Position numbers and translations under genes: made by a program. From IMG/VR virus record IMGVR_UViG_3300024259_001989: 64,000 nucleotides of DNA, one strand, 5' to 3'. Of the stretch, positions 1,823-40,206 are shown piece after piece (position 1 is the stretch's first letter; each line of letters opens with the position of its first letter). The stretch comes from an uncultured virus (IMG/VR IMGVR_UViG_3300024259_001989). Its lineage: Duplodnaviria; Heunggongvirae; Uroviricota; Caudoviricetes. Below the pieces are notes generated by a model. That model saw only the letters and a program-made list of their open reading frames with translations, had not been told where the DNA came from and did no database searches.

Positions 1823-2245
1823 ATGAGCAATGAATTTATAATTAATTTTACAGATATAACTTTAAATGAAGCAGATGGTGTCTTTGCAGAGACAAATGAG
1901 ATAATGTTAAAAGAGCCTCCGTTTAGTGATAAATGGGTTTTAAGAAGTAATGTAACTATTATAAGTGATGGTGGTGATGGCACTATGGAGATACAATGTC
2001 ATGGAGATGGTAATATTTATATTTTAGATTATGATCCATCAATCGGAGATTTATATTATAATCCTGACATACAAGCTATCTCGATGTGGGCTCAGGAGAG
2101 TGGTTGGAAAATTCCTCAACCTAATCCTGAATTAATAAAGACAAATAAAGAATTTTGGAAATATTTTTATGATACGTTAATCATAGACTCAGATTATCTC
2201 GATAAGTTATATGGTGGACGACCACAAATAGATGGGAGTAAATAA
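1823..2245 (+). CDS. hypothetical protein
   Basis: 140 aa ORF tightly packed in operon. Confidence 0.6.
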   Translation: MSNEFIINFTDITLNEADGVFAETNEIMLKEPPFSDKWVLRSNVTIISDGGDGTMEIQCHGDGNIYILDYDPSIGDLYYNPDIQAISMWAQESGWKIPQPNPELIKTNKEFWKYFYDTLIIDSDYLDKLYGGRPQIDGSK

Positions 2246-2496
2246 TGACTGCTGAAGAAGCTATTAAAGAAGGATATAAATGTTTTTGTATACAATGCAC
2301 TAAAGCTTATAAAAAAACCCCAAGCTATTGGGAAGAAAAAGCAAGTTGCCTTGGAGCAGAGATTGAAATGTGTAGTTGTGGCTGTGATTTATTTATGTCT
2401 TTTGAAGAGCATATACAAAGGCGTGATGGAACATATGTAGAGCCAGAGAAAAAGGACGGTCCTATTGAAAGTAGGATTGATATTTTAGATTTATGA
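2245..2496 (+). CDS. small Cys-rich protein with C-terminal RIDILDL tag
   Basis: CxxC and CxC motifs; ends ESRIDILDL. Confidence 0.7.
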   Translation: MTAEEAIKEGYKCFCIQCTKAYKKTPSYWEEKASCLGAEIEMCSCGCDLFMSFEEHIQRRDGTYVEPEKKDGPIESRIDILDL

Positions 2497-2723
2497 AAAT
2501 TATATGTGATAAATGTGAGTGGGTTATTGATAAAGATAAATATGTTGATGGGGAATTAGTTGAAGAATATAAAAATGTATTCGGAACAACTTGTCCTAAT
2601 TGTTGGCATACTATTAAACCATTTAAGAAGCCATTTTCTGATAAGAAGAGGGACGATAAAATGGAAATATTGAGAGAAGAGATGAGAGACAAGCTTAGAA
2701 AAAATATAAAGGGAGAAAAGTAA
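2493..2723 (+). CDS. small zinc-ribbon protein
   Basis: CDKC...CPNC. Confidence 0.6.
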   Translation: MKIICDKCEWVIDKDKYVDGELVEEYKNVFGTTCPNCWHTIKPFKKPFSDKKRDDKMEILREEMRDKLRKNIKGEK

Positions 2724-3370
2724 TGCCTATAGAAGAGAAACCACAATTGTTGGAGTTTGATTGTAAATTAGATTCAATGCCAGATGTTTTATGGAATATT
2801 AAGTACGATCCTAATAATGTAGAATTTCCACTTTACGTATCAGGCAATGGACAGAGCTTTAAATGCCCTGTTGAGTTGTTTGGAGATGTTACGGCTTTTT
2901 TACAAAGCAAAAATATTATTAAACCTAACATTCTCACAAGAGGTAGAACGGTATCAACTCCAGGCTTTGGCCCAGTTGCCGCATCTCTCCTGCCTCCTAA
3001 GATAGAGGGAGCTTTAGATCCAGTAGCTATTCCTATCAGTGAAGGTCATACTGAGCATGCTATTCCTATTAGCAGCGGCCCTCCTATGGATGCATTGTCA
3101 TCATTTGATATAACTAGTGAAGCATCTGTTATTGCGAAACCTGTAGTAAATGATGAAGTCATTGAAAGCATAGGGATTACAGAGATTCCTGAGATTTCGG
3201 CTGTTAAGGTTGGAGAGACTGTTGTTACTTCTGAGACTGAGAGTGATATTCCTAAGAGAACCGTTATTAGGACAAGGATCAGCGGAGATGATCCTCAAAG
3301 TGCAGAGAAAGAAGCTGATGCTATTAGAGGCGCAGGTAAAGAAGTTAAAAAGAATTTCAAAAGAGCATAG
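2723..3370 (+). CDS. hypothetical protein
   Basis: 215 aa ORF with GGAG RBS and overlapping start/stop. Confidence 0.6.
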   Translation: MPIEEKPQLLEFDCKLDSMPDVLWNIKYDPNNVEFPLYVSGNGQSFKCPVELFGDVTAFLQSKNIIKPNILTRGRTVSTPGFGPVAASLLPPKIEGALDPVAIPISEGHTEHAIPISSGPPMDALSSFDITSEASVIAKPVVNDEVIESIGITEIPEISAVKVGETVVTSETESDIPKRTVIRTRISGDDPQSAEKEADAIRGAGKEVKKNFKRA

Positions 3371-3372
3371 CA

Positions 3373-3588
3373 ATGGAATATAAATGTCAAACAATAAATA
3401 TGTCACGAATGGTTGTTAGCTCTAGAGGGTTTTTAACTCCTCTCTGCGAAAGATGTAATAGTCAAGATTGTAGCAATCCTATTGAAAAAACAGATGTTAG
3501 TATTCTTGGTGTAGTTAAAAAGGTGAAAGTTTACAATAGAGGAACTTCTCCTAGATTTGTAATTCAATGTGAAGGGTATATGCCATAA
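3373..3588 (+). CDS. small Cys-containing hypothetical protein
   Basis: CERC..DC...C; operon packing. Confidence 0.55.
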   Translation: MEYKCQTINMSRMVVSSRGFLTPLCERCNSQDCSNPIEKTDVSILGVVKKVKVYNRGTSPRFVIQCEGYMP

Positions 3589-4379
3589 TGTTTCATACGA
3601 TGAATTTATCAGAGGCCTATTTAAAAGATCATAAGCTTCGTAATGACGCAAAGGATATGTATACGTCAACTCAGAAAAATGTTGCTAAAATAAAAAACAT
3701 ATATTTAAGTAAAATTGAGTATCCTAAATATGAAGAGGCGTTTGACTATGTAGATAAATTATTTCCTAAGGTCAAGGTAAAAAATATTTCCATTTATAAA
3801 GTTGCTGCTAAAGACTTGGCTAAAATGGGATATGGAGGAGCAGAAGGTTTTTACGATACCATTTCTAAAATTATAGTGATTTGTGGCGCTCGTCCAAAAG
3901 AGCCATGCTCTGATAAGAGATATAGAGTAGAGGCTAAGATTGAGAGAGATGAAGTTATAGTCCATGAGCTATGTCATTACTGTTATTATGATGAGGGAAT
4001 GAGATCTGTAAGTAGTGAGATGAGAGAAGAGTTTGCTTATGGATGGTCGGTAGGATATTTAAGACAGAAGGGTTATACTGATGAGAAGATTATTAAGTAT
4101 AATTTTTTACCATATCTTATAGGTCTTTCTTTTGACCCTGCAACAAAAGTTATAATGGTTCAAAATGGAGTAAGTACTTACGAATATAACAATCATACTA
4201 AATATCAGAGAAAAGAATTTAATAGAACTTATTTTGGTAGAATATTTAAGAAGGCAAAAGAGATAGCTATGGAAAGAGGATTTAAACTTATAGATCTTTA
4301 TTCTAAAAAAATAGAAGTAGGCACAGGGCTTACTGATGAAGAAGTAGACATAGATCGTTTTGATATTTTAGATTTATGA
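3588..4379 (+). CDS. putative HExxH zinc metallopeptidase with RFDILDL tag
   Basis: VIVHELCH followed by EEFA (zincin pattern); ends IDRFDILDL. Confidence 0.7.
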   Translation: MFHTMNLSEAYLKDHKLRNDAKDMYTSTQKNVAKIKNIYLSKIEYPKYEEAFDYVDKLFPKVKVKNISIYKVAAKDLAKMGYGGAEGFYDTISKIIVICGARPKEPCSDKRYRVEAKIERDEVIVHELCHYCYYDEGMRSVSSEMREEFAYGWSVGYLRQKGYTDEKIIKYNFLPYLIGLSFDPATKVIMVQNGVSTYEYNNHTKYQRKEFNRTYFGRIFKKAKEIAMERGFKLIDLYSKKIEVGTGLTDEEVDIDRFDILDL

Positions 4380-4630
4380 ACAAAAAACAAAAAAAGGCTA
4401 TTAAACAAGATGCTGATATATGGATAGAGTTGGGCTTAAGATCTTTTGCTAGATTTTATGCCATGGATATAGAAGATGCGATAGTTATTGCTTCTAATCC
4501 AAATCTCATTTTTGATGAAATGGTAGAACAGATGAATGCCTCATTAAGCGGGTATGAGGATTTTATGGTTAAAATAAAAAAAATGGACGTAGAAGAAAAA
4601 CTTACTCGTATGGACATTTTGGATTTATGA
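4376..4630 (+). CDS. hypothetical protein, RMDILDL tag
   Basis: C-terminal motif; ATGA overlap with upstream gene. Confidence 0.7.
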   Translation: MNKKQKKAIKQDADIWIELGLRSFARFYAMDIEDAIVIASNPNLIFDEMVEQMNASLSGYEDFMVKIKKMDVEEKLTRMDILDL

Positions 4631-5139
4631 GTTATAATAAAGACATAGGTAATCAAACAGTAAAATTTGAAGATGAAAAAAGTTATTTAAATTGTAGATT
4701 AGATTATTTAAATTATTGCGAGCCGTTGGTAGTAGCACTAGATTTTTTACCGTTTATACAACAGGAGAGGTATAACGGAGACACTTGTGTAGTAGAAAGT
4801 ATCGAACCAGTTCAGTATGTTGGAGGTGTGGACGTAAGCGCAGGTGTGGATTCTAGTTTTGGTTTTATCCATAGCGGTTCTTCAAGTATCTCAGCAGGAA
4901 CTCCTATAGGTTTTGCTACAGGTGAAGATTCTGGAAATGGTTATTATACTACTGTTGCCACTAGCAATTTTCCCAATGATACGGTTTTCAATGGTAATGT
5001 AATTATTAATGGAACTCTAACTGTAAACTCAGATTCTCCTGTAAGTATTTCTCATGAGCCAGATCCTCCTATAGAGATTCCTAAAGTAGAAGAACCTGAA
5101 GATCCGATAGATAATAGGTTTGATATTTTAGATTTATAG
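4627..5139 (+). CDS. hypothetical protein, RFDILDL tag
   Basis: C-terminal motif after Pro/Glu-rich linker. Confidence 0.7.
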   Translation: MSYNKDIGNQTVKFEDEKSYLNCRLDYLNYCEPLVVALDFLPFIQQERYNGDTCVVESIEPVQYVGGVDVSAGVDSSFGFIHSGSSSISAGTPIGFATGEDSGNGYYTTVATSNFPNDTVFNGNVIINGTLTVNSDSPVSISHEPDPPIEIPKVEEPEDPIDNRFDILDL

Positions 5140-5147
5140 GAGTTATC

Positions 5148-5447
5148 ATGGGGCAAGTTAAGTTTTTTTGGTACAAGCATCCAAAAACGGGGGAAATGTT
5201 TTCGGATCAAAGAATGGAAGGTTTTGAAGATAAGCCCTTTATCCATAAGGGAGTTGTGTGCGATCTGATGAGAGATTACGTCCCTCCTGTAAAAGAGCAT
5301 AAGCCTCTAGGAGTTATAAGAATGTATAAAGACGGCCAAAGAGAAGTTTTTGAGGCGGACCCGCAATATGTCAAAAAATTAAATCCCAAAAATATTAGGT
5401 TTCAAGATGGGCATATTGAACGTTATGACCCTACGAAGCATTGTTGA
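5148..5447 (+). CDS. hypothetical protein
   Basis: AGGAG RBS, 99 aa. Confidence 0.6.
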   Translation: MGQVKFFWYKHPKTGEMFSDQRMEGFEDKPFIHKGVVCDLMRDYVPPVKEHKPLGVIRMYKDGQREVFEADPQYVKKLNPKNIRFQDGHIERYDPTKHC

Positions 5448-5515
5448 CGACATTTTTTATAATTATATATCATAAAAATAAAGGAATTTTCATTTACTTT
5501 TATAATATATAATTA

Positions 5516-5625
5516 TTGGAACATTTCAACGCGAAATTAAAGTGTTTCGATATGAAATTAGATTATAAGAGCAATTTCTTTTTCCTTTATTCGCGTTGAG
5601 GAGAATAGATTTTGCTCTTTTTTTA
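5516..5625 (+). ncRNA. putative structured RNA leader (two hairpins with loop-loop complementarity), copy 1
   Basis: tcaacgcgaa (5526-5535) is complementary to ttcgcgttga (5590-5599); aagagcaa/ttgctctt stem followed by a T-run; homologous copy at 7269-7381. Confidence 0.55.
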
Positions 5626-5640
5626 TGGGAGAGTAGAGAA

Positions 5641-6438
5641 ATGGGAAGAAGATTAACAGTGGAATATATAAGGGGTTATTTTGAAGAACAGGGATGCGAG
5701 ATGTTGGAGGAAGAGTATAAAAACAATAGGACAAAAATGAAATATATTTGTAGTTGTGGGAGTATTAGTCAAATATCTTTTGATAATTTTAAAAAAGGAC
5801 ATAGATGCATGAAATGTGGAGGAAACGAAAATTTTACTTTAGAATATGTTTATAATTGCTTTAAGGATGAAGGATGCGAATTACTAGAAAAGAAGTATAT
5901 AAATCGCCATGAGCTAATGAAATATAAATGCATCTGCGGAAATATAGATAAAATAAGTTTAGCAAACTTTAAACAGGGAAAGAGATGTAGATCATGCGGC
6001 ATCGTTAAGCTATCTGGAGATAACCATTACCTATGGATAAAAGATAGAAAGATATTTAAAGAAAATTATAAGTTTAGAAAAAAGTGTCGCAATTTATTAA
6101 CAAAAACTTTGAGCAAAATTAATCAGAAAAAAACAGATAAAACATATAATATATTAGGATATACAGCAGAGGAATTAAAAGATCATATTTACGGCCACTC
6201 TAATTGGAAAAACATAAAAAATGATCAAGATTTTCATATAGATCATATATTTCCTATAAAAGCTTTTTTAGACTACGATATCAAAGATCCTCAATTAATT
6301 AGTTGTTTGGATAATTTGCAACCCTTGTCAAAAAAAGATAATTTATCAAAATATTGCAAATATGATAAAAAAGAATTTGAAAATTGGTTGAAAGATATGA
6401 TCCTACAAGACATTGTTAAAAACATTGTTGAAAAGTGA
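5641..6438 (+). CDS. HNH-type homing endonuclease with N-terminal CxCG...CxxC repeats
   Basis: two ~60 aa zinc repeats plus HIDHIFP...NLQPL..DNLSK; ATG 5641 with GGAGAG RBS preferred over TTG 5596. Confidence 0.8.
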   Translation: MGRRLTVEYIRGYFEEQGCEMLEEEYKNNRTKMKYICSCGSISQISFDNFKKGHRCMKCGGNENFTLEYVYNCFKDEGCELLEKKYINRHELMKYKCICGNIDKISLANFKQGKRCRSCGIVKLSGDNHYLWIKDRKIFKENYKFRKKCRNLLTKTLSKINQKKTDKTYNILGYTAEELKDHIYGHSNWKNIKNDQDFHIDHIFPIKAFLDYDIKDPQLISCLDNLQPLSKKDNLSKYCKYDKKEFENWLKDMILQDIVKNIVEK

Positions 6439-6456: not shown

Positions 6457-6462
6457 ATAGAA

Positions 6463-6822
6463 ATGAAGTTTATTCGTAAAGAGTTTATAACAACAACGAT
6501 TTTTGACAAAGAGTTAATAGAAAAGGACGAGATTAAGATAGTCCTTAAGAATTTGTTTCACGAAAAGATAGATTTTTCTTTAACTATGAAAAAATATATG
6601 CCTCATCAGCAGGAATTTTTTGATATGAGTTTTGAGAGGGTGAGAGTCAAAAAAATAAATGATAATGAGACTGTTGATTTGTTAGCATTTAAAAAGGGTA
6701 TTAAGACTACGATGAAAAATGTTAGCATTGATCATCTCGTCTCAATAGAAGCGATAACTAAAAAGCATAAAATACTAGATGTAGATTCAAACATAGACAG
6801 GTTTGATATTTTAGATTTATAG
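6463..6822 (+). CDS. hypothetical protein, RFDILDL tag
   Basis: C-terminal motif. Confidence 0.7.
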   Translation: MKFIRKEFITTTIFDKELIEKDEIKIVLKNLFHEKIDFSLTMKKYMPHQQEFFDMSFERVRVKKINDNETVDLLAFKKGIKTTMKNVSIDHLVSIEAITKKHKILDVDSNIDRFDILDL

Positions 6823-7395: not shown

Positions 7396-8187
7396 ATGAG
7401 TAAAAAATTAACGTTAGAATATGTTAAGGGATTTTTTGAGGAGCAGGGATGTAAGTTGTTAGAAAAGCGATATAAAAATAATAAAACAAAAATGAGTTAC
7501 AGATGTAATTGTGGGAATATTAGCAAAATACAATTTGGAAATTTTAAACATGGGCAACGATGTTTCGAATGCGGGCACAGAAATAAGGGTGAGAAAAAAA
7601 GATTATCATTTAAGTATATAAAATCTTATTTTGAAAAAAATGGTTGCGAATTGCTGGAAAATAAATATATAAATTCAAGAACAAAAATGAGATATCAATG
7701 TTCTTGTGGGAATATTAGTAAAATAGCTTTTAAACATTGCTATAATTTTATAAGGTGCAAAGAATGTGGAGAAAAGGCGTGTTTCGGTGAGAATCATTAT
7801 CGATGGATAAAAGATAGGAAGAAATATAAAGAAAGGAAAAAATTTAGGCAAAAATGTTATAGTATGTTAAGAAAGACACTTAAAGAAACCTATCAAAAGA
7901 AGGAAAATAGGACTTATAAAATGTTAGGGTATACGGCAGAAGAATTACAAGATTATATATGTAATCATTCTAATTGGGAAGAAGTCAAGAATTTAAAATG
8001 GCATCTTGATCACATCTATCCGATTGGAGCTTTTCTTGATTACGGAATAAATGATGTAAAATTAATAAATTGTTTGGAAAATTTGCAACCTCTTGAATGC
8101 AGAGAGAATATTTCTAAAAGTGATAAATATGATCAATATCAATTTGAAGATTGGCTAATAGAAAGAAATTATGAAATTCGAAAATAA
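7396..8187 (+). CDS. HNH-type homing endonuclease, paralog of 5641..6438
   Basis: same repeat architecture; WHLDHIYP...NLQPL..ENISK. Confidence 0.8.
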   Translation: MSKKLTLEYVKGFFEEQGCKLLEKRYKNNKTKMSYRCNCGNISKIQFGNFKHGQRCFECGHRNKGEKKRLSFKYIKSYFEKNGCELLENKYINSRTKMRYQCSCGNISKIAFKHCYNFIRCKECGEKACFGENHYRWIKDRKKYKERKKFRQKCYSMLRKTLKETYQKKENRTYKMLGYTAEELQDYICNHSNWEEVKNLKWHLDHIYPIGAFLDYGINDVKLINCLENLQPLECRENISKSDKYDQYQFEDWLIERNYEIRK

Positions 8188-9586
8188 AAATTATGTTCCG
8201 CTGCATTGTCACACTCATATGTCGAAATTTGACGGTCTGTGTAGTCCTAATGATCTTGCTATGCAAGCCAGAAAGATGGGATTTCCTGCCTGTGCGATTA
8301 CTGACCATGGGAATGTTATGGGATGGATTAAATGGATGAAAGCTTGCAGAGCTACGAAAGATAGAAAAGGAAAAGAAATTCCTTATGCTCCAATTAAACC
8401 TATTCTTGGCTGTGAGTTTTATTTAGCTAGGAGAATGGATATAGGTCAAAATGTAGAAAAAAGAGATACTGCGGTAATAAAGCTAAATCAGCCTGATGGG
8501 AGAAGAGGAAACCGTCATCTAAATCTTTATGCTATGAACTTTAAGGGATATAAGAATATCACTCGTATGTCTCAAAGATCCTACACAGAAGGTTTCTATT
8601 ACGATGGTAGGATTGATATAGATTTGCTTTCTAAACACTCTGAGGGGGTTATGTGTGGCTCTGCTTGTTTGTCCAGTGTTATTAATGCCAATCTTATGTA
8701 TGGTCGTTATAACCAAGCTAGAGAGGTCTGTAGCACATTTAAAGATATATTCAAAGAGAATTTCTTCTTGGAAATAATGTATCATGGCATTAGAGAAGAA
8801 AAAGAAATTATTCCTTTGATCCTGAAGTTATCAACAGAATTAGATATACCAGTTGTTTGTACAAATGATAGTCACTACATAAATAGTAATCAGGGAGAGT
8901 CCCAAGAAGTATTATTATGTATGTCTCAAGCAAGATGTATGAAAGATCCTAAAAGATTAAAGTTTAATCATATGGAATTTTACCTTAAGAGTGCTGAGGA
9001 GATGGGTAAGATGTTTGGTCATATCCCTCATGCTTTAACGAATTCGGTTACTCTTGCTGAGAGAATAAATACTAAAGATATTGAAGAAAATCTTTTTGGT
9101 GGTATGAGACTACCAGAATTTGAAATCCCCGAAAAATATAAGAATCCTTATGACTATTTAAGTGATTTATCATGGGAGGGTATGAAGAAGATAGGATGGG
9201 ATAAAAGTCCTGATCATGTAGAAGCTCTCAAGATGGAATTAAATGATGTTAAGATAGCTTATGAAAATAATAACTACGATTTCTCAACGTATTTTTTAAT
9301 TGTTCGTGATTATATCAAAGATGCTAAAGACAAAGGTATTTTGGTAGGTTGCGGTCGTGGTTCAGGTTATGCAAGTGTATTGTTAAGGTGTATTGAAATC
9401 ACCTATGGAGTAGATCCTTTAAAGTACGGACTACTCTGGGAAAGATTCCTTGGATTCGATAGTAAGAGATTTATTAAAGAATCAGATTTTGGATTTGAGG
9501 AAGATTTAGTTCAAGCAGCAGCAGATAGGGATCTTGAAGAAGATCGAGAATTAGAGGATGACTTAGGTGGCGTTGATAGATATTAA
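8171..9586 (+). CDS. dnaE: DNA polymerase III alpha (DnaE) fragment 1: PHP domain plus start of palm
   Basis: PLHCHTHMS..DG, AITDHGN, TNDSHY, GCGRGS, LLWERFL; ends in an acidic tail before PDxDxD. Confidence 0.92.
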   Translation: MKFENKNYVPLHCHTHMSKFDGLCSPNDLAMQARKMGFPACAITDHGNVMGWIKWMKACRATKDRKGKEIPYAPIKPILGCEFYLARRMDIGQNVEKRDTAVIKLNQPDGRRGNRHLNLYAMNFKGYKNITRMSQRSYTEGFYYDGRIDIDLLSKHSEGVMCGSACLSSVINANLMYGRYNQAREVCSTFKDIFKENFFLEIMYHGIREEKEIIPLILKLSTELDIPVVCTNDSHYINSNQGESQEVLLCMSQARCMKDPKRLKFNHMEFYLKSAEEMGKMFGHIPHALTNSVTLAERINTKDIEENLFGGMRLPEFEIPEKYKNPYDYLSDLSWEGMKKIGWDKSPDHVEALKMELNDVKIAYENNNYDFSTYFLIVRDYIKDAKDKGILVGCGRGSGYASVLLRCIEITYGVDPLKYGLLWERFLGFDSKRFIKESDFGFEEDLVQAAADRDLEEDRELEDDLGGVDRY

Positions 9587-9791
9587 ATACGGGCAAATGA
9601 CTTTCGCCCAGTTTGAAGCTCTTAGAGAGTTATATAATAACGATGAGATATCTAGAAAGGAATTTTTATATTGTTTCCCTGCACATATGAATCCCATGAT
9701 TGATTCTCATGGTTATTTAACTCCTACTAATCCTGCTCCTTTTGAAATTTCAGAACCTATTAATAGTCGTTTTGATATATTGGACTTATAG
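9567..9791 (+). CDS. hypothetical protein, RFDILDL tag
   Basis: C-terminal motif; start uncertain (GTG 9567 or ATG 9597). Confidence 0.65.
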   Translation: MALIDIKYGQMTFAQFEALRELYNNDEISRKEFLYCFPAHMNPMIDSHGYLTPTNPAPFEISEPINSRFDILDL

Positions 9792-10217
9792 ATGCCGACA
9801 TTTGATGATATTAAACTTTTTCCGTGGCATCAAGAAATATTAGACTTGATGACTAATACAAATGTTCCGATAGAGCCATTAACTGTCCAGCAGTTGCAAG
9901 AAGCTCAGGCTTCTTTGGAGCAGCCTATTCAAGAGAGCAGTAGTAACATAATCACTCATAATGGAATAAGTATGGAGTATCATGATGGTCTAGTTGAGCA
10001 GATGGCAGAGGTTCAAGCCCTGCCTGAGCTTGTGCCATTCTCTTCTCAGGATATTGCATCTGCTGGATTTGTATATGCTCCGTATATACCTCTTATGCAA
10101 ACTCCTACTTTACATACCTCTGACCTTACAGTACTAGGTGAAGAAATATTCGTTGTTAAAAAATATAATGATATATATTCAGACGCAAGAGAAAGATTCG
10201 AGATTTTAGACTTATGA
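9792..10217 (+). CDS. hypothetical protein, RFEILDL tag, with capsid-like AGFVYAPYIPL motif
   Basis: C-terminal motif; internal motif resembles gp23-type major capsid C-terminal segment. Confidence 0.65.
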   Translation: MPTFDDIKLFPWHQEILDLMTNTNVPIEPLTVQQLQEAQASLEQPIQESSSNIITHNGISMEYHDGLVEQMAEVQALPELVPFSSQDIASAGFVYAPYIPLMQTPTLHTSDLTVLGEEIFVVKKYNDIYSDARERFEILDL

Positions 10218-10645
10218 AAAAAGAAGATTTAATCTTAGAAGTTCTTAAAGAGATAAAAGAAGTGACAGTCTATAAAGATGACTACAAGAATTCTTTTGAG
10301 TTTGATAGGGACGATGTGTATTGGTACTGGAACGGTTTTGAACCAGACATAAAATATAGGATCGTTGGAAGATTAAAAAAAGATGAAATTTTTAATATGT
10401 CCCTAGGAGATGCATATTTTTATATTAACAAGAAACCTTGTTGTTGCACAATTACACAAATAAATCATCCTAAAGTTGGAGAGAGAGATAATTATGAGAT
10501 GTTAATAATTATTGATATCAGTAGGTTAAACTATGATAGTTTTGATGTTATTAATGATTTTCATAAATTTTTTAAGAAATATGAAGGTCCAATTTTTGAT
10601 GGGATAGAGATGGTAGAAGATAGATTTGATATTTTAGACTTATAA
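10214..10645 (+). CDS. hypothetical protein, RFDILDL tag
   Basis: C-terminal motif. Confidence 0.7.
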   Translation: MKKEDLILEVLKEIKEVTVYKDDYKNSFEFDRDDVYWYWNGFEPDIKYRIVGRLKKDEIFNMSLGDAYFYINKKPCCCTITQINHPKVGERDNYEMLIIIDISRLNYDSFDVINDFHKFFKKYEGPIFDGIEMVEDRFDILDL

Positions 10646-10730: not shown

Positions 10731-11171
10731 GTGATTAAGATTGGCGATAATGTACCGACAGATGAAGACAGGGTAGAAGAATATAAAGAAATAAATCAAG
10801 ATCTGAGAAGGAAAGTGGCCATTTCTATCAAAGAGAAAGCTTGTTTGCAAGCTGATATTGATAGGTTAAAACTTATTACCGAAAACGATGATAGCGGAAT
10901 GCTTTCGTTGATGGAGGGAATGGAGAGAACTATAAATAGATTACAGAAAGAAAAATCAGAATATTCTGATATAGGCCCAGAGTTAACTGGTTTAAGAAGT
11001 AAAGTAAGGAGTTTAGAAAGTAGAAAAAAAATTCTTGAAAAACAGCTAGAAGATAGGATAAAGACTAGCGATAGTCAGATAGAGGAATTAACAGTTAAAA
11101 ATCAAGAGTTGCAAACTGAGTTGGATATTAGAATTCAGGAAGATGATAGATTTAAGATTTTAGATTTGTAG
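10731..11171 (+). CDS. coiled-coil protein, RFKILDL tag
   Basis: heptad-rich; true start may be ATG 10654 across an A7 frameshift. Confidence 0.65.
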   Translation: MIKIGDNVPTDEDRVEEYKEINQDLRRKVAISIKEKACLQADIDRLKLITENDDSGMLSLMEGMERTINRLQKEKSEYSDIGPELTGLRSKVRSLESRKKILEKQLEDRIKTSDSQIEELTVKNQELQTELDIRIQEDDRFKILDL

Positions 11172-11206: not shown

Positions 11207-12226
11207 ATGGCATACGAAGAAATTAAAAAAGAAATAGTAGAGCATATCAGTAAACGTCATTCCAAGAATGAGAGCCTACCTAAAATGCTTGCAAAAGTGC
11301 AAGAAGAGCTTGAGATTTTAGGTAGTACAGATGGATTAGAATCTAAGAATAATTTAGAAGTTTTTCATAGTACTTGGAAGAATCATAAGGGTAGAATAGG
11401 TCATAAAAATGAAATTAATAGTTGGACAGCATTTCTTTTAGGGATTACAGAGGTTAAGCCTGATGGAGAATTTCTTCCTACTAGGCGTGCATTTGCAAGA
11501 GCTGGTTTTCCTGATATTGATACAGACTTTGATTATGAAAATAGAGACGATGTTTATTCTTACATTATTAATAAGTATGGAAGAGAAAATGTTGGAAATA
11601 TTGGCACACATGGGCTATTAAAATTTAAGTCGTGTGTTACAAGAGTTACAAAAGTTTTGGATCTTGCTAATGCTTATCATAAAGATAAAGAGGTTTATGT
11701 AAGTGAGAACGCAGCGAAAGTATCAGAAATTCTTTCTCCATTTCCCAAAAAAGGTTTAATGAAAGTTACTGATGATGATGGAGAGACTTATCTTATCAAA
11801 ACTTTTGAAGATGCTTATGATCATTGTCCTGACTTTAGACACTATGTAGATAAATATAAGAGTAGTAATTTTAAGAAGTATTTAGAGCAGCTTGAAGGAA
11901 CTTTCGCTAATTTTGGCTGTCTTGCAAAAGATACTCCTATTTTGACTGATGGAGGGTGGAAGAGGATCGATCAACTGTCCACTAAATTTTCTATAGCCTA
12001 CATCAACAAGGACGGAGAAGTATCTTATACTGATAGATATAGGGCATTCAAGACAGGCAGGAAAAAGGTATATAGGCTGAAACTTAAGGATGGTGGATTT
12101 ATAGATGTAACTGATGAGCATCTTATTTTTACAGATCAGGGGTGTATTAGGTTTGAAGAAATTAGAAAAAATAAAGAAAATTATAAGATTTATGGAATAA
12201 AAAAGGATTTTTTCGAAGAATGTTAG
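11207..12226 (+). CDS. dnaE: DnaE fragment 2 (PDIDTDF catalytic motif) fused to N-terminal half of a split intein
   Basis: FPDIDTDF...KYGRENV..IGT; intein N part starts CLAKDTPILT (11918) and contains block B VTDEHLIFT. Confidence 0.9.
   Translation: MAYEEIKKEIVEHISKRHSKNESLPKMLAKVQEELEILGSTDGLESKNNLEVFHSTWKNHKGRIGHKNEINSWTAFLLGITEVKPDGEFLPTRRAFARAGFPDIDTDFDYENRDDVYSYIINKYGRENVGNIGTHGLLKFKSCVTRVTKVLDLANAYHKDKEVYVSENAAKVSEILSPFPKKGLMKVTDDDGETYLIKTFEDAYDHCPDFRHYVDKYKSSNFKKYLEQLEGTFANFGCLAKDTPILTDGGWKRIDQLSTKFSIAYINKDGEVSYTDRYRAFKTGRKKVYRLKLKDGGFIDVTDEHLIFTDQGCIRFEEIRKNKENYKIYGIKKDFFEEC
11918..12223 (+). mobile_element. split intein N-fragment (102 aa)
   Basis: C1 after FANFG; TxxH motif; no C-terminal HN in this ORF. 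Confidence 0.85.
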
Positions 12227-13459: not shown

Positions 13460-13600
13460 ATGGGCAAGGTGAAATTGTTAGATATAGAGTCTATCGAAGA
13501 ATTGGATTTTGAAGATGTTTATGATATTTCCATAGATAAAGGTCCAAAGTTTTTTAAAGATGAGCATAATTATATAGCTAATAATATAGTTGTCCATAAT
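13460..13600 (+). mobile_element. split intein C-fragment (47 aa)
   Basis: blocks F/G ending HN followed by Ser+1. Confidence 0.85.
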
Positions 13601-14860: not shown

Positions 14861-15078
14861 TAATTGAAAAGCGATTGTGTTTATATTAAAAAGGTAGTTG
14901 TTCATGATTATAATAAAATGTCCTGAATGTGATAGCACAGATTTACATGTTTACGACAAAAAAGGATGTATTGAGGACGGTAGGGTGATTGAAGAAACAG
15001 AATGTCTGATTTGTAATCATGTTTTCTCAGTAAAAGCTGAATTATTAAAAGTAGAAATTGAATAAGATAGGAGTAAAA

Positions 15079-15399
15079 ATGGCAAATGAACACAAGACTA
15101 CAATTCGATTGGAAATAGATAAAACTATTCAACCTAAACAGTTTGAACCAATCAAAGTAATTGTTGATGTAGAGGAAAGTTTTACATGGACCGATGAGAA
15201 GGACAGAGCAAAAAAGATGAAGTCTTATACTGATAAGATGGCAGAAGATTTTGTTACAATCTATGATCGAGTTGCTAAGAGAATAGGTGAAGATGGAAGA
15301 TGTATCGGAAGAGTTATTACTGGTGGAGATATTCCTGTTCAAGGCAAGGAAGAAGTTGCTACTTCTGTCGATAATGATGAAGAATGGGACTTTAGTTAA
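15079..15399 (+). CDS. hypothetical protein
   Basis: AGGAG RBS before ATG 15079; acidic tail EEWDFS. Confidence 0.6.
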   Translation: MANEHKTTIRLEIDKTIQPKQFEPIKVIVDVEESFTWTDEKDRAKKMKSYTDKMAEDFVTIYDRVAKRIGEDGRCIGRVITGGDIPVQGKEEVATSVDNDEEWDFS

Positions 15400-27235: not shown

Positions 27236-27473
27236 AGAAGAATTAGAAAATAAGATCAGGACTATCGTAGCTGATCTTTTAAATATCGAAGAGTCAGAGA
27301 TAACAGATGACTCGCATTTTATTAATGACTTACATGCAGATAGTTTAGATTCTGTTGAGTTGGTTATGATGGCAGAGGATACATTTAATATCAGCATAAA
27401 GGACGATGATGCAGCGAAAGCAATAACTTTTAAATTGCTAGTGGATCTGGTAGAAAGCAAAATAGAAGATTGA
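27228..27473 (+). CDS. acpP: acyl carrier protein
   Basis: DLHADSLDSVELVM phosphopantetheine motif. Confidence 0.9.
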   Translation: MNREELENKIRTIVADLLNIEESEITDDSHFINDLHADSLDSVELVMMAEDTFNISIKDDDAAKAITFKLLVDLVESKIED

Positions 27474-27880
27474 GCTTAGTATCGTATATTCCCATCAGAG
27501 AGGCCACGTTAAAGCATGGTGGCAAAGATATGCCTGTAATTGGTGTTAAGAGTTTAGCTATGGAAATAGAGAGACTTAATGCCACTTATGAAGTGTGGTT
27601 GAATGTAAATGATGCTGTGTCTATAGTAGCAGCTTCTGACAATGCAGTGACAAGTGCTATTAGTATGGTTCCTACAGATATGGATGAACCTGCTTCTTTT
27701 GTTATAGATGCAGTGACAGTTTCTTGCACTATTAAACATTATGCCTACAACTCTCTCAAGCATGCCTACTTAGTAAAAATAGAATTCCCATTGATGAAAG
27801 ATCAAGTTAAGACTTACATCTATGAGAAAGATAGTGTTAGCAGTGTTGAGCAAACTCGTTTTGATATTTTGGATTTATAA
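27470..27880 (+). CDS. hypothetical protein, RFDILDL tag
   Basis: C-terminal motif. Confidence 0.7.
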   Translation: MSLVSYIPIREATLKHGGKDMPVIGVKSLAMEIERLNATYEVWLNVNDAVSIVAASDNAVTSAISMVPTDMDEPASFVIDAVTVSCTIKHYAYNSLKHAYLVKIEFPLMKDQVKTYIYEKDSVSSVEQTRFDILDL

Positions 27881-27882: not shown

Positions 27883-28428
27883 ATGAACTGGTGTAATTGT
27901 AATCATGATGATTATTATAATTTAACAACGAGCGTAAATGATTACGGAGTGGACGGACACAAAACTTGTTACACCTGCGGTAATATTATAAACGATGCAG
28001 AGTTAATTTCTCTTTTAGTCAAGGAAGTAAAGAGTTTAAATCAGACTGTTGAAGATTTAGAACGTGATAGAAACTTACATCCTGTTTCTGATCTTAATTT
28101 TACCTATGAACAAATACAAGAAAAAATAAGAGAATTTAGAAGCATTGAAGAAGATTTAAGAGTCCATGCAATAAATGTTAAACAACTAAAAGAATTAGAA
28201 AAAGAGGTCATAGAGTTAAGAACTACTACACATATTTTAACAGCCAAAACAAAAGCTTTAGAGTTAGATAGAGATAAATTAACTATTATCGTTGATTGGT
28301 TAAAATCTAAAGAAAATAAAAGAGAAGAAGTTGAAATAAAAGAAGCAGATAGAAAAATGGTAGAAGAAGATTACTTATTGGAAAATGCTGACAAACAAAC
28401 AGAACGATTTGAAATGATGGATTTATAG
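27883..28428 (+). CDS. coiled-coil protein, RFEMMDL tag
   Basis: variant C-terminal motif. Confidence 0.7.
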   Translation: MNWCNCNHDDYYNLTTSVNDYGVDGHKTCYTCGNIINDAELISLLVKEVKSLNQTVEDLERDRNLHPVSDLNFTYEQIQEKIREFRSIEEDLRVHAINVKQLKELEKEVIELRTTTHILTAKTKALELDRDKLTIIVDWLKSKENKREEVEIKEADRKMVEEDYLLENADKQTERFEMMDL

Positions 28429-28899
28429 ATGGACTTACTACAAGTAATAATACCTGAGCCTCAAAGTTTTCGTATCCTAATGGATGACGATGAAGAGATT
28501 AGGATTATAGGATATGAGAAAATAGATATTAACTTTTGCGATAGGATTATAATCAAAAACGGAAAGTCAATAACAGTTCAATCGCCAATGATCACATATA
28601 TTTTAAGGTTAGATAGTAAATCTAAAAAACAAATACAAACGATATTCTCAAATGCTTTTCCTGGAACTTTCAGCACATATCAAATGAGACAGGGAAGAAT
28701 AAAAGTTGGTAGACATGGGTATATATTTAATGTCGAAATATGGGGGAAGCCAGACATGAGTGAATCCATGCTTTATACGAGAAAATATAAAGATGATATT
28801 ATGGTGAGTTTGAAATTGGAGAATACTAGCGTATCTCTATTCGACAGGGCAGAAGATGCCTATGAAAAATATACACGTTTTGAAATTATGGATTTGTGA
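28429..28899 (+). CDS. hypothetical protein, RFEIMDL tag
   Basis: variant C-terminal motif. Confidence 0.7.
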   Translation: MDLLQVIIPEPQSFRILMDDDEEIRIIGYEKIDINFCDRIIIKNGKSITVQSPMITYILRLDSKSKKQIQTIFSNAFPGTFSTYQMRQGRIKVGRHGYIFNVEIWGKPDMSESMLYTRKYKDDIMVSLKLENTSVSLFDRAEDAYEKYTRFEIMDL

Positions 28900-29316
28900 A
28901 TGAAAAAAGATATGTTCGGGACAGAAATAAAAGTGGGGGATTTTGTAATATATGCTCAAGCATATTATGCAAAACATTTTGAAAAAGCAATCGTTATTGC
29001 GAGTGAAAGTGATTTTATAAGAGTAGAGTATGTAGGCGATTCATCATATTCTGTAAAGCAATATTGTAAAAAGAGGGGTAAAAAAAGTAAGCTTACAGCT
29101 ACAGATAAAAGAATCATTGTTATGGGGTCAGCCACTATTGATAAAGATACTGATGTTTATCAGAATGAGAGAAAAAGATTTGACAAAGAAAAAAAAGCTC
29201 TTCAAGCTAAAATCTTAAAATCGCATGGTAGAGAGAAGAAATTAGTAGAAGATAATAAGTTATTACAATTAGAAGTAGATAAGATACATGATCGTTTTGA
29301 TATATTGGACTTATAG
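28900..29316 (+). CDS. hypothetical protein (SH3/KOW-like start), RFDILDL tag
   Basis: KDMFGTEIKVGDFV; C-terminal motif. Confidence 0.7.
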   Translation: MKKDMFGTEIKVGDFVIYAQAYYAKHFEKAIVIASESDFIRVEYVGDSSYSVKQYCKKRGKKSKLTATDKRIIVMGSATIDKDTDVYQNERKRFDKEKKALQAKILKSHGREKKLVEDNKLLQLEVDKIHDRFDILDL

Positions 29317-29771
29317 TGGAAAATAATGCTTTAGAAATTTTAGGTGGTAGATTTTCGATTCTTTATGATGGTGTTATAGTCATGCAGAATGTAGTTCCTG
29401 AAGTTATTGAATGTCAGCCTATACCTCCTTATAACCATCTTGTTTATGCCTTCACTGCAAGAAGTAATCCTCATAGTCTTATGAATTTTGATGGTCTTGT
29501 TCAAAATGGGGCAGTATCTCATACGATGTGTAAGATATCAAATGGATTTGCTGAGTGTGATGCTTATATAGATAGTTATGAAATAGAGCAAAATCATGCG
29601 AGTATAGAATATGGTGGGCATAGTTATTTACCTCCTGGTGGTCAACAAGTTATTATCCAAGGACATGTCGAAGCTCGATCAATTAACGATGATTATAAAT
29701 ACAATCCTAACAGAGTTAAGAAAAAGAAACCAGAACCTATTTATAGCAGGTTCGATATTTTAGATTTATAA
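29316..29771 (+). CDS. hypothetical protein, RFDILDL tag
   Basis: C-terminal motif. Confidence 0.7.
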   Translation: MENNALEILGGRFSILYDGVIVMQNVVPEVIECQPIPPYNHLVYAFTARSNPHSLMNFDGLVQNGAVSHTMCKISNGFAECDAYIDSYEIEQNHASIEYGGHSYLPPGGQQVIIQGHVEARSINDDYKYNPNRVKKKKPEPIYSRFDILDL

Positions 29772-37439: not shown

Positions 37440-37614
37440 TGTTTTATAATTTGGAAGTTGTTAAGTGCTGTATTAATTGTAAACATTGGGACGAAGGACA
37501 TGGAGATTATAAGTCTACATGCAACTATGAACCTAGCGGAAACGTGGTTTTTTCTCCTGCTCATATATGTGATAGATATGAAGTCCAAGATAATTATTGG
37601 AAGGATTTAATATA

Positions 37615-38406
37615 ATGAAGATAACATTTTTAGGTGTCAGTGGTGCATTGTCAGCAAAGTATAATTCCAACATGCTCATCGAAAATGATAAAGACTGTAT
37701 GCTCTTTGATTGTGGAGAGGACGTTATGCATTCTTTAAATGCTGCGGGACGCAAACCTGAAGAATTGACAGATGTTTTCATATCTCACCTACATTATGAT
37801 CACATGGGTGGTTTGAGCTGGCTTGGATACTATACTTATTTTGTAATGAAGAAGAGATTGACTATGTATATCCATGAGTCAATGATTTCTGATATATGGG
37901 CTATGCTTAGACCTGCTATGGAGAAGCTTGATGGTATGGCAGAGATGATGTCTTTGGACGACTATTTCAATATTGTTCCATTCAAAGATAATGATTCATG
38001 TGTAGTCGGTAGTTTCTATTTTGAACCTGTCAAACAGCTTCATGTTGCAACTCCTCAAGGTAATATGTATTCCTATGGAGCAATATTTAAACATTCTACC
38101 TTGGAAGGTAAGTGTTGGATAGCTCTTAACAGTGGTGAAGCAAAAGTGCTTATTACTTCTGACACTAAGAGTCTGCATATTCCTCTTGGAGTGTTTCCGA
38201 CTATGATATTCTGTGATGTTGATGTTATGAATCTTGGTGGAGTTCATCCCAACTACGATGTTCTTAAAGCGATGCCATCAGGGATAAAAGAAAACATGTG
38301 GTTATATCATTATCATGACTTCCACGACATAGGAATGGATGTGCCTAATTATGAAAAAGATGGTTTCGCAGGTTTTGTTGAAGAAGGTCAGGTGTTTGAA
38401 ATATAG
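37615..38406 (+). CDS. MBL-fold metallohydrolase, Apyc1 (anti-Pycsar)-like
   Basis: ITFLG, FDCG, SHLHYDHMGGL, SLDDYF, TSDT, GVH, MWLYHY, GFVEEGQ. Confidence 0.7.
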   Translation: MKITFLGVSGALSAKYNSNMLIENDKDCMLFDCGEDVMHSLNAAGRKPEELTDVFISHLHYDHMGGLSWLGYYTYFVMKKRLTMYIHESMISDIWAMLRPAMEKLDGMAEMMSLDDYFNIVPFKDNDSCVVGSFYFEPVKQLHVATPQGNMYSYGAIFKHSTLEGKCWIALNSGEAKVLITSDTKSLHIPLGVFPTMIFCDVDVMNLGGVHPNYDVLKAMPSGIKENMWLYHYHDFHDIGMDVPNYEKDGFAGFVEEGQVFEI

Positions 38407-38951
38407 TGGCAAAGAAAATAATAATAAAGAACACTAGCAAGAAGAATAGACATGGAACTAATTGTAATGATCAAGGTAGAGTCGTAGTAGGAAAGTCTCC
38501 TAGTGACAATATTCCTTATAGTTTGACTGTTCAAAAGTCAGTGTCTCATTATATTATGCAGTATGATTTAAAATGCTCTATTATTCAATTTCCGAATAGG
38601 GCGCCTTGGCATCGACTTCTCAGTGAGAATAAAGTATCTAATGAGTTTATGGATGTCTTTGCTAATAGGATCAATTGGAGTATTGCCTGTAGTCGTCAGA
38701 AGCTGTCGGAAGCTTTGATGGAGAAGTATTCTAAAGATATAGCATGGACTGAGGCATCTCTCTTTCAAAACTTTTCTAAAAAATTTATTCTCAAACATCT
38801 TGATGATTTATCAATGGATATAATTATGAATCAGAGATTTTTGATTACTCAAGAAGAAAGAGATGAGTATCAAAAGGAGAAAAAAGAGAAGGACAAGTTT
38901 TTAGAAGGTGGAGAAGATATAGAAGAACGTTTTGACATCTTGGACTTATAG
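38406..38951 (+). CDS. tryptophan-repeat protein, RFDILDL tag
   Basis: INW..S.QKLSE..MEKY..IAW repeats; C-terminal motif. Confidence 0.7.
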   Translation: MAKKIIIKNTSKKNRHGTNCNDQGRVVVGKSPSDNIPYSLTVQKSVSHYIMQYDLKCSIIQFPNRAPWHRLLSENKVSNEFMDVFANRINWSIACSRQKLSEALMEKYSKDIAWTEASLFQNFSKKFILKHLDDLSMDIIMNQRFLITQEERDEYQKEKKEKDKFLEGGEDIEERFDILDL

Positions 38952-38960
38952 GAGAAGAGT

Positions 38961-39206
38961 ATGATATGTGTTCGTTGTAAGTGTAGCGTGATAGGAAATA
39001 TTCCTAGCAATTTATATTCTACTCAAACATGCAAAAAATGTTATCCGATACATATGGCAGAACAGCCATCAGACGAAGAAAAAGCAGAGATAGAGCAAAA
39101 AAAGAAAAAACAAAAATATAAAAAAGCGGAAGAAGCAAGAATAGAAGCAGAAAGAATAGCAGAAGATGAAAGAATAGATAATCGTTTTGATATCTTGGAC
39201 ATGTAG
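38961..39206 (+). CDS. small zinc-finger protein, RFDILDM tag
   Basis: CVRC...CKKC; variant motif. Confidence 0.7.
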   Translation: MICVRCKCSVIGNIPSNLYSTQTCKKCYPIHMAEQPSDEEKAEIEQKKKKQKYKKAEEARIEAERIAEDERIDNRFDILDM

Positions 39207-39334
39207 GAAAGCATTATGAAAAGATTTTTTAAATGGTTTAAATTAAAGTTTCACAAATGTGTGACATATCCTCGTGATAGATTATGGGGAGGAGATGGAA
39301 CTCAATATTGTTCAATTTGTAAGGAAAAGATAAA

Positions 39335-39844
39335 ATGAGTGCTAATTATTATGAAACAGATACACACGTATATTTTTATGGTTCAGCTTATTCACAGTGG
39401 GCTAAGAGAGATATGATAATAGATGATATTAAATACAACACATGCGAACAGTATATGATGGCTGAGAAAGCAAGATTATTTGAAGATGATATAGCTTTAA
39501 AGCAGATTATGAAGGCATGTGATCCTTCTGTCCAAAAATCTTGGGGGAAAAAGGTTAAAAATTTCGATAAAGATAAGTGGGAAGAAATAGCAAGAGATGT
39601 AGTTTATAAAGCTAACTATGCTAAGTTTACTTCGCACGAAAGTTTGAGAAAACAGATATTGGCAACAGGAGATAAGATTATTGTAGAGGCAAGTCCTTAT
39701 GATCGTATATGGGGAGTTGGCTTGGGATGTGACGATCCTAAAGTGTTCGATTCCAAGAATTGGAGAGGAACTAATTGGTTAGGTGAGGCTATAATGAAGG
39801 TGAGAGAAACCATAAAAGAAGAAGATTTTAATTTACTTTCGTAA
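39335..39844 (+). CDS. NADAR (YbiA-like) family protein
   Basis: EQYMMAEKA.LF.D, KF, IVEASPYDRIWGVG, WRG.NWLGEAIMKVR. Confidence 0.92.
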   Translation: MSANYYETDTHVYFYGSAYSQWAKRDMIIDDIKYNTCEQYMMAEKARLFEDDIALKQIMKACDPSVQKSWGKKVKNFDKDKWEEIARDVVYKANYAKFTSHESLRKQILATGDKIIVEASPYDRIWGVGLGCDDPKVFDSKNWRGTNWLGEAIMKVRETIKEEDFNLLS

Positions 39845-39852
39845 GGATAGAT

Positions 39853-40206
39853 ATGGTAGATGAGTTCGGTAACTCAGAGACTCCAGATCACACTATCGAA
39901 GAGATAGATGATTTTATAAAGTTTAATGATGTCGGTGGGACCTTTCTTACAGAGGAAACTTTGACACCTATTAAACCTAAGGATGAAACGATTTATGATT
40001 TAAATAATGGAACTATACCTTTTTCTAGTGCAGGTATTGAAGATAGAGTAGATTTGTGTTTAGATATAAGAAAAGAGAATTTATTAGCATCGGCACTAGA
40101 AGCTGATGAAGAAGAGTTGACAGAGATTAGAAAAAAATTGGATATAGTTAATGAAAAAATTGATAAAGACAAAGTACATGACAGATTTGAAATTTTAGAT
40201 TTATAG
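39853..40206 (+). CDS. hypothetical protein, RFEILDL tag
   Basis: C-terminal motif. Confidence 0.7.
   Translation: MVDEFGNSETPDHTIEEIDDFIKFNDVGGTFLTEETLTPIKPKDETIYDLNNGTIPFSSAGIEDRVDLCLDIRKENLLASALEADEEELTEIRKKLDIVNEKIDKDKVHDRFEILDL

Follow-up and report, generated by a model that had tools for sequence, protein, structure and literature searches.

Why do 17 otherwise unrelated proteins of one virus end in the same short peptide? The question is raised by a stretch of 64,000 nucleotides from an uncultured virus (IMG/VR record IMGVR_UViG_3300024259_001989), called the window here in its full length, where open reading frames (ORFs) with dissimilar bodies share the ending RF[DE]ILDL or a close variant of it (the tag) directly before the stop codon. 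The window is AT-rich (32.5% G+C), carries nearly all of its genes on the same strand and reads as a section of a huge bacteriophage genome. Its Pfam matches include a DnaB-type helicase and a primase in two genes, RecA, UvrD, an acyl carrier protein, DNA polymerase III alpha (PolIII alpha) in three ORFs with intein remnants, S-adenosylhomocysteine (SAH) hydrolase, peptide deformylase, a radical SAM protein, many glycosyltransferases, NeuB and an epimerase; a PHROGs search found a gp32-like single-stranded DNA-binding protein (SSB). The window is collinear, at 50–85% protein identity, with three IMG/VR records, G001 (350,866 bases), G002 (297,710 bases) and G003 (547,943 bases, 100% complete by CheckV). 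Genes were called crudely as longest ORFs; the per-genome denominators given below are approximate, and the short minority-strand ORFs probably include some spurious calls. As argued in what follows, the tag is real and ancient, selected as a peptide and portable between proteins, and it is very probably a docking label.

The pattern R[FIM][DEK][IM][LM]D[LM], proposed in a first-pass annotation of the window, has 17 matches in its six-frame translation, all of them on the plus strand and each immediately followed by a stop, and their positions coincide with the 17 ORF ends listed there; neither a minus-strand nor an internal match was found in the six frames. Comparing C-terminal with internal positions, the check suggested in that annotation, gave 17 matches among 4467 stop-preceding 7-mers versus 0 among 76838 internal ones (Fisher p = 3.7e-22). 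The number expected from amino acid composition is 1.4e-5 per 100 C-termini, and 2000 residue shuffles of 100 crude window ORFs yielded a mean and a maximum of 0 matches.

Selection acts on the peptide and not on the underlying nucleotides. The tag arginine is encoded by CGT (8), AGG (4), AGA (4) and CGA (1), belonging to two codon families, the stops are TAG (9), TGA (5) and TAA (3), and both aspartate codons are used. Within the 21 tag bases of the 17 tags, pairwise identity is 0.91 at codon positions 1 and 2 and 0.51 at position 3, compared with 0.40 in the 21 bases upstream and 0.34 in the 21 bases downstream. Since identity resides at positions 1 and 2 and neither at position 3 nor in the flanks, it is the peptide that is conserved, which bears out the synonymous codon variation noticed in the first reading of the sequence. 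A degenerate DNA pattern of the tag occurs at 31 sites in G001, 24 in G002 and 37 in G003, on the main coding strand except for two sites in G003; the reversed-pattern control has 0 sites in these three genomes. A nucleic-acid element (terminator, promoter, coupling signal or recombination site) translated by accident, as the position of the tags at gene boundaries in operon-like arrays with often overlapping or adjacent start codons might suggest, is excluded for practical purposes by this codon usage, by the divergence of third positions and flanks, and by the absence of matches in the other frames, on the other strand and in the reversed controls.

A 12-residue position-specific scoring matrix (PSSM) was built from 100 strict tags of the window and the three relatives and scanned over the 1892 crude ORFs of these four sequence sets. 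The full motif is [ED]-P-I-x-[SDN]-R-F-[DE]-I-L-D-[LI], located at the C-terminus or at most nine residues from it. With the last motif residue counted as 0, the constant core consists of R(-6), I(-3), L(-2), D(-1) and L/I(0); position -5 also takes L, W, Y, A, S or T, and position -7 is S, D or N in 83 of the 100 strict tags. The I/V-x-x and the Pro/acidic residues reported earlier ahead of the arginine recur as Ile at position -9 (64/100) and Pro at position -10 (37/100), and E, K and P are over-represented among the 15 residues that precede it. Among the 140 segments scoring above 8 bits, 116 lie at the exact C-terminus, 21 lie 1–9 residues away and three lie further in (12, 16 and 96 residues from the end). 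Whole sub-lineages append D, E, S or G after the tag. Because 21 of 140 hits trail 1–9 residues and sub-lineages end in ...LDLD, ...LDLE or ...LDFS, a free carboxylate of the PDZ type directly on the last leucine is not required, which corrects the earlier suggestion of selection on a free C-terminus.

Tagged ORFs (score above 5; median length 116 amino acids) number 17 of 100 in the window, 35 of 493 in G001, 29 of 499 in G002 and 57 of 800 in G003, corresponding to about 7% of the clade's proteins and 17% (17 of ~100 ORFs, roughly one in six) in the window. A search of related phages, which the first-pass annotation had also proposed, thus returned 29–57 tagged ORFs in each of the three records. 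Their genes form arrays, at 2–11 kb, 27–30 kb and 38–40 kb in the window and with ~35 tagged genes between 136 and 153 kb in G003. Among more distant relatives, G013 has ~18 tags, and G014–G017 have at most four each, near control counts; from these low numbers we conclude that the massive expansion is specific to the sub-clade of the window. Two distant PolIII relatives without tags, G011 and G012, had no match to the families of the ATPase or clamp discussed below, a profile that does not discriminate because these genomes are only 37% and 52% complete. The strings RFDILDL, RFEILDL, FDILDL and FEILDL had 0 occurrences, and no description of such a tag was found, in the literature searched on huge phages, C-terminal motifs and sliding clamps; passages of PMC7824862 likewise mention no such tag or module.

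Queries with the tag removed retrieved body homologues from G001–G003 for 13 of the 17 window carriers, and every such family includes tagged members. The few homologues that depart from the strict pattern show close variants (among them RWDILDL, RFDYLDL and RAEMLDL); orthologues retain the tag at 30–50% body identity, and tags or close variants persist even at 28–40%. Some families hold both tagged and untagged paralogues, for example two G001 proteins of ~85 amino acids that stop just before the linker, so the tag is a removable module. None of the 17 window carriers passes a Pfam cut-off or has a named PHROG function, and only one of 121 carriers in G001–G003 passes a Pfam cut-off, a protein of 371 amino acids with eight DUF4116 repeats; the carrier bodies are therefore unrelated orphans. 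They lean acidic and are mostly soluble, with a median body isoelectric point (pI) of 5.6 and a transmembrane (TM)-like segment in 8 of 132, and body pI, CxxC pairs and TM-like segments gave no clear separation of carriers from other small ORFs. Mostly, then, the carriers are small, soluble, fast-evolving orphans, accompanied by one conserved HExxH metallopeptidase. Core replication enzymes and glycosyltransferases are untagged throughout the window, as had been stated. Positional exclusivity, synonymous codons, retention in orthologues and the many body families all back the original idea of a portable label on unrelated proteins.

The HExxH protein (3588..4379, plus strand; 263 amino acids, ending in VDIDRFDILDL), a zincin-like metallopeptidase, is the only tagged protein with a recognisable fold. 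Of the body folds suggested earlier, this peptidase is upheld by residues invariant in 66 sequences (H126, E127 and H130 of H-E-x-x-H, and a downstream Glu), whereas the coiled coil at 10731–11168 has only a sub-threshold match. The structural model of the 263-residue protein is confident, with a predicted local distance difference test (pLDDT) score of 88, and gives generic matches to zincin metallopeptidases in VIA-align (best Z 7.1); profile searches against solved chains gave 0 hits, and Foldseek gave no match at E <= 0.001. A SprT-like identity was considered and dropped, the SPRTN entry 6mdx reaching only Z 5.8 at rank 14 in VIA-align. Among its 110 metagenomic homologues (35–92% identity), 51 carry the strict tag and 102 a loose version, and the eight others comprise two fragments, five recognisable variants and one protein with none. 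Along this family the tag drifts from RFDILDL to RFDLLDL, RYGMLDL, RFDLMDLD(W), LFDVLDLD and FSILDLD. Judged from these sequences, its aromatic-x-Φ-Φ-D-Φ core (Φ, hydrophobic residue) is very old, and the tag is far older and more widespread than the window genome. One public source assigns P0055, identical to the G003 copy of this protein, to an archaeal metagenome-assembled genome; this is probably a mis-binned phage, because its contig has genes for bacterial-type PolIII, DnaB, DnaG, IF3, peptide deformylase and sigma-70-like proteins.

What, then, would read such a label? A candidate emerged from a point new to this analysis, namely that the clade's Cdc48-like ATPase ends in a related, anciently conserved tail. 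The genes of this ATPase and of the β clamp lie outside the window, and both were read from the relatives G001–G003. The ATPase has 552 amino acids, is encoded just upstream of a DnaC-like loader and DnaB and, with identities of 86% and 76%, is one of the clade's most conserved proteins. G001, G002 and G003 match this ATPase family at E ~1e-287. The protein matches phrog_8638 (function unknown) end to end and aligns over its whole length to the D1–D2 rings of p97/Cdc48/Afg2, the N-domain being absent; in some sources its homologues are labelled as SpoVK/Ycf46/Vps4 family. The protein ends in KDLDL in G001 and G002 and in RDLDL in G003, and the preceding residues differ. In an AlphaFold2 monomer model the tail is disordered (pLDDT 60 then 49 over the last 12 residues versus 86 overall), a low confidence that carries no information on docking in the hexamer or on a partner.

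Among 101 full-length homologues of this ATPase, 63 end in [RK]-x-Φ-[DE]-Φ with 0–2 extra residues and 84 in Φ-[DE]-Φ. The [RK]-x-Φ-[DE]-Φ tail is present in 31 of 73 phage loci, including 21 of the 29 high-GC phages, in which 2 of 806 neighbouring ORFs are tagged; since these phages have the tail almost without tags, the ATPase tail is ancestral, and the tags of the clade look like a later expansion in lengthened form. Similar tails (RKLEL, RRMEL, GRMIDL) are found in high-GC metagenome homologues, whose cellular-looking neighbourhood was judged from G+C content and neighbouring genes alone. Tag and tail share a terminal Φ-D-Φ, an upstream basic residue, a near-terminal position and a tolerance of a trailing acidic residue. 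In other lineages a few genes next to the ATPase reproduce its tail. At locus L156 the ATPase ends in GGRMIDL, an HhH protein in TQGRMLDY and a protein of 92 amino acids in KSTRILDL, and at locus L225 an ATPase ending in GGRTLDF has two neighbours ending in AERNIDI and AERNIDL. ORFs resembling the ATPase tail of their own locus amount to 19 of 2616, versus 408 of 250421 for tails matched to foreign loci. The two endings also change together in places: at L109 the ATPase ends in KDIDI and all eight tags end in Ile; in a 72600-base contig Glu replaces Asp in both (tag FELD, ATPase DLEI); and at L200 the tag ends in LDLE and the ATPase in IDIE, a trailing residue on both being seen also in 86402- and 12027-base contigs.

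Quite possibly, although we would not call the chances even, the tag is the clade's elaborated and massively expanded copy of the tail of the Cdc48-like ATPase, and with the same reserve we propose that the reader of the tag is the receptor of this tail. The link between tag and tail is suggestive, not proven, and we infer both that one receptor reads the two and what this receptor is. In mechanistic terms, the tag would be a short helix-like motif at the C-terminus, set on a linker rich in E, K and P, and would attach its carriers to one common receptor. Its source would be the ancient tail, [KR]-x-hydrophobic-D/E-hydrophobic-COOH, in which the phage's p97/Cdc48-like tandem AAA+ ATPase (phrog_8638) ends. 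Tagged proteins would plug into the pocket that reads the ATPase tail and would act as clients, adaptors or regulators of an unfoldase machine, with DUF1257, DUF2997 and radical SAM proteins, also encoded in these genomes, as its presumed companions.

Several observations weigh against this proposal. The spacing of tag and tail is unlike, with R at -6 in the tags and K/R at -4 in the ATPase; the match comprises the last three residues and a basic residue. Among untagged ORFs, 80 of 1754 also end in Φ-[DE]-Φ with 0–2 extra residues, so the resemblance alone could be due to chance. The covariation is anecdotal, being drawn from few and phylogenetically non-independent sequence pairs, and has exceptions: a 13564-base contig combines a tag ending in I with an ATPase ending in L, and Met occupies position -2 of the G013 and L109 tags where the ATPase has Leu or Ile. 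The ATPase is devoid of a p97-type N-domain, the usual adaptor-binding site, and the DUF1257 and radical SAM proteins of the clade are untagged.

A close known parallel to this proposal is the p97/Cdc48 network. Cofactors of p97/Cdc48 use short linear motifs, the conserved tail of the ATPase is HbYX in archaeal Cdc48/PAN, and PUB/PUL domains bind the tail in eukaryotes. The phage system is similar in its type-II AAA+ p97 fold, its disordered conserved C-terminal tail and the use of one docking motif on many unrelated proteins. It differs in that the phage ATPase has no N-domain, that the motif is common to the ATPase tail and the putative clients instead of being read by an N-domain, and that the tag sequence is unlike VIM, VBM, SHP and HbYX.

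Other terminal signatures were noted in the same surroundings. A second AAA protein of 535 amino acids (G002, 192956–194563, with orthologues in G001 and G003) is marked by a different conserved tail, S-[GA]-F-G-F-[GS]-K..., which occurs on no other ORF of the four sequence sets. A low-GC phage subgroup of the ATPase family (L201–L208, L213–L217, L221, L236 and L240) ends in an acidic run followed by Leu (EDEEL, NEDDL, DEGDDL; 16 of 73 tails), and at L208 and L158 one neighbour ends in GDDDI or GDDEI. Such acidic-run tails may represent a different dialect of the same tail system.

The hub candidates among the 116 core proteins common to G001–G003 are the β clamp, the two AAA proteins and a stand-alone double Clp_N protein. 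If the clamp were the reader, the tag would tether dozens of small proteins to the phage's DNA-loaded β clamp, which would be both a toolbelt and a marker of phage DNA under replication, much as T4 gp45 is for gp43, gp55 and gp33. We hold this to be rather unlikely, though it has substantial points in its favour. The clade encodes a true β clamp, matching solved β clamps over its full length (profile E 8e-17), with DnaX and delta (holA-like) adjacent, and the tagged genes cluster in and around the replication module. DUF2997 was matched in five of five genomes (G001, G002, G003, G013 and G017) at E <= 0.01, four of them over the family cut-off and G002 just under it, and its gene lies ~1.5 kb downstream of the clamp gene, after delta, in all five; the order β clamp, delta, small ORF, DUF2997 is found at 140361–143313 in G002 and likewise in the four others. 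With DUF2997 beside the clamp-loader operon, the clamp and the ATPase proposals may converge.

The resemblance to T4 and RB69 extends to the build of the epitope. According to passages of PMC2988020, the gp45-binding epitopes are short hydrophobic-acidic motifs near the C-terminus, set on divergent flexible linkers of unrelated, functionally different carriers; they are interchangeable between carriers and bind the hydrophobic patch of the clamp. The tag has the same build. The T4 tails read from the records are ...ASLDFLFG (gp43), ...PSLDFLYEAND (gp55) and ...NTLDFLL (gp33); RB69 gp43 ends in ...KKASLFDMFDF, with F-D-M-F-D-F paralleling F-D-I-L-D-L of the tag. However, the Asp at -4 behind the RB69 likeness varies in the tags (D/E/K/N/S/G), and the Asp that does not vary stands at -1. 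Clamp clients of the clade itself are untagged, PolIII alpha ending in ESIDMFA (window) or ETVDLFA (G002) and DnaX in ESIRMFAKR (G001, G002) or ESLLIASQEKSKR (G003), whereas the replicative polymerase of T4 is one of the three carriers known in that phage. A phage clamp with 29–57 clients per genome would have no precedent. The clamps themselves are of different types, bacterial-type β in the clade and gp45/PCNA-type in T4. The bacterial β-clamp-binding motif is QL[SD]LF or QLxLxL; set against it, the 100 tags read R, F, E/D, I, L, D, L, with no Gln-Leu start and with an acidic residue where Leu is expected. Co-folding of two G001 β-clamp copies with residues 219–263 of the HExxH protein scored 0.01 (mark 0.32) in a run with no controls, which counts neither for nor against the clamp.

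A second, smaller set of tails was observed on replication-cluster proteins of the window (35–1198, 15058–15399, 15411–16592 and 16683–17411; also 1198–1821), in which acidic residues surround a near-terminal Trp. DnaB ends in DDWDENY, a protein of 113 amino acids in EEWDFS, one of 393 amino acids in TGWDSL and the gp32-like SSB in GDWENNF, and these endings are kept in the G001 and G002 orthologues. By analogy with T7 gp2.5 and gp4, which have acidic aromatic tails, they may constitute a replisome docking motif.

Alternatively, the tag could be a degron or host-directed docking motif addressed to a hub or protease of the host (ClpXP/ClpAP, Lon, FtsH or another protein), serving the timed removal of early proteins or bringing host targets to destruction as poxvirus and HIV adaptors do. 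The carriers, small acidic-leaning soluble orphans in tandem arrays, are typical of host-takeover genes, and the clade encodes the double Clp_N protein mentioned above. The conservation of the ATPase tail in cellular homologues means that its reader could be a protein found widely in cells. A flexible linker followed by a terminal peptide, the build of the tag, is also that of known adaptor tethers and C-terminal degrons. Poxvirus ankyrin/PRANC F-box-like proteins and SspB-type ClpX tethers, whose hubs are Skp1 and the ClpX N-domain, are comparable: there, too, bodies that vary end in one constant element that docks on a hub, and the carriers have expanded to many, paralogous or not. The docking elements in these cases are domains or motifs of established hubs, whereas here a peptide of 7–12 residues with a putative hub is found in a bacteriophage. 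A degron common to the phage's own highly conserved ATPase would be odd, and the retention of the tag on the conserved HExxH peptidase across a very wide clade fits recruitment better than disposal. We consider it improbable that the tag has this role.

Still more doubtful is a packaging signal that loads the procapsid for co-injection, in the manner of encapsulin cargo peptides or the N-terminal capsid-targeting sequences of T4. Huge phages do package many proteins, and encapsulins load cargo by a C-terminal peptide on unrelated small proteins. However, the tagged genes reside in replication or early-looking arrays away from the structural genes, the carriers lean acidic and not basic, the tail-bearing ATPase and the HExxH enzyme are encoded in the helicase–primase block, and no capsid link was found.

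A broader generalisation could be entertained, which we regard as somewhat doubtful: huge phages, and beyond them the Ycf46/Cdc48-like AAA+ modules of phages, bacteria and plastids in general, would run a plug-in address system, in which a lineage-specific terminal peptide copied from the tail of the motor enrols dozens of unrelated clients or adaptors (here up to 57 per genome) of one unfoldase-centred machine, possibly at the replisome beside the sliding clamp. It would represent a prokaryotic-viral counterpart of the p97 cofactor network. One label is carried by 7–17% of the proteins in a widespread clade of 0.3–0.55 Mb phages, nearly all of them orphans without a functional annotation. Naming its reader would place dozens of these dark-matter proteins in a common pathway at once, open the uncharacterised family of Cdc48-like ATPases (phrog_8638 and Ycf46-type modules) to functional study for the first time and offer a natural portable tag for cargo recruitment.

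Homologues of the ATPase adjoin radical SAM, DUF1257 and DUF2997 genes in other loci, and members of these families are present in the window on the plus strand. A DUF1257 (Ycf35-like) protein is encoded at 43801..44154 (Pfam E 1.2e-9), a second, weaker DUF1257-like protein at 44288..44632 (Pfam E 0.015; its G002 orthologue is above the cut-off) and a radical SAM protein, also recognised by Pfam, at 45332..46177, radical SAM genes flanking ATPase homologues elsewhere. All three are untagged, and for the first DUF1257 and the radical SAM protein a connection with the tag is presumed. The same families make up the Ycf46 (AAA+)/Ycf35 (DUF1257)/DUF2997 set of cyanobacteria, plastids and mobile elements. 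Unlike in that set, the genes of the clade are dispersed, with DUF2997 located by the clamp-loader operon, and orthology of the ATPase to Ycf46 itself is only putative. The literature listings searched describe neither a mechanism nor a tail or tag for the DUF1257/DUF2997/Ycf46 set.

Besides the HExxH protein, the first array of the window, on the plus strand like all tagged genes, includes ORFs for 83 amino acids (2245..2496, ending in GPIESRIDILDL, with tagged orthologues in G001 and G002), 84 amino acids (4376..4630, LTRMDILDL, tagged orthologue in G003), 170 amino acids (4627..5139, DPIDNRFDILDL) and 119 amino acids (6463..6822, NIDRFDILDL; the G003 orthologue has the variant RWDILDL). HNH-type genes are found at 5596–6438 and 7396–8187. 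PolIII alpha is split over 8171–9586 (PHP/N-terminal part), 11207–12226 (middle) and 13460–14860 (fingers and HhH, with an intein-splicing remnant), and four tagged and two other genes lie between the pieces. The four encode proteins of 74 amino acids (9567..9791, EPINSRFDILDL), 141 amino acids (9792..10217, ARERFEILDL), 143 amino acids (10214..10645, VEDRFDILDL) and 146 amino acids (10731..11171, EDDRFKILDL), the last being the coiled-coil-like protein with a sub-threshold Pfam match. In G001 the last two PolIII alpha pieces are fused, and other tagged genes occupy the gap behind the PHP piece.

Five consecutive tagged genes form the second array, with products of 136 amino acids (27470..27880, EQTRFDILDL), 181 amino acids (27883..28428, QTERFEMMDL), 156 amino acids (28429..28899, KYTRFEIMDL, tagged orthologues in G001, G002 and G003), 138 amino acids (28900..29316, IHDRFDILDL, a match to phrog_2251 of unknown function) and 151 amino acids (29316..29771, EPIYSRFDILDL). 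The third array comprises a member of a multi-copy tagged family with 181 amino acids (38406..38951, DIEERFDILDL) and ORFs for 81 amino acids (38961..39206, RIDNRFDILDM) and 117 amino acids (39853..40206, VHDRFEILDL). Possible counter-defence or signalling genes adjoin these tagged genes at 37597–38406, 39335–39844 and 40416–40841; they encode a metallo-β-lactamase with a sub-threshold match to Apyc1 (anti-Pycsar), a NADAR domain protein and a cREC_REC receiver domain.

These phages are rich in inteins and homing endonucleases, with Hint/intein matches in a window protein of 618 amino acids (21359–23215), a free-standing LAGLIDADG gene at 41908–42882 and an intein containing LAGLIDADG inside the G002 topoisomerase (126364–129978). 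The core genes of the clade, as seen in G002, include IF3, a Ro60/TROVE protein, PspA/IM30, a PARP-like protein, a histidine kinase with a response regulator, a glutamate-receptor-like ion channel and two sigma-70 region-4 proteins, in addition to the stand-alone double Clp_N protein. Finally, a sugar-modification block of the window (40836–41696 on the minus strand, and 47272–64000) holds NeuB, a cytidylyltransferase, ~8 glycosyltransferases, methyltransferases, UDP-GlcNAc 2-epimerase and SAH hydrolase, a gene content that suggests a phage-made nonulosonic-acid glycan.

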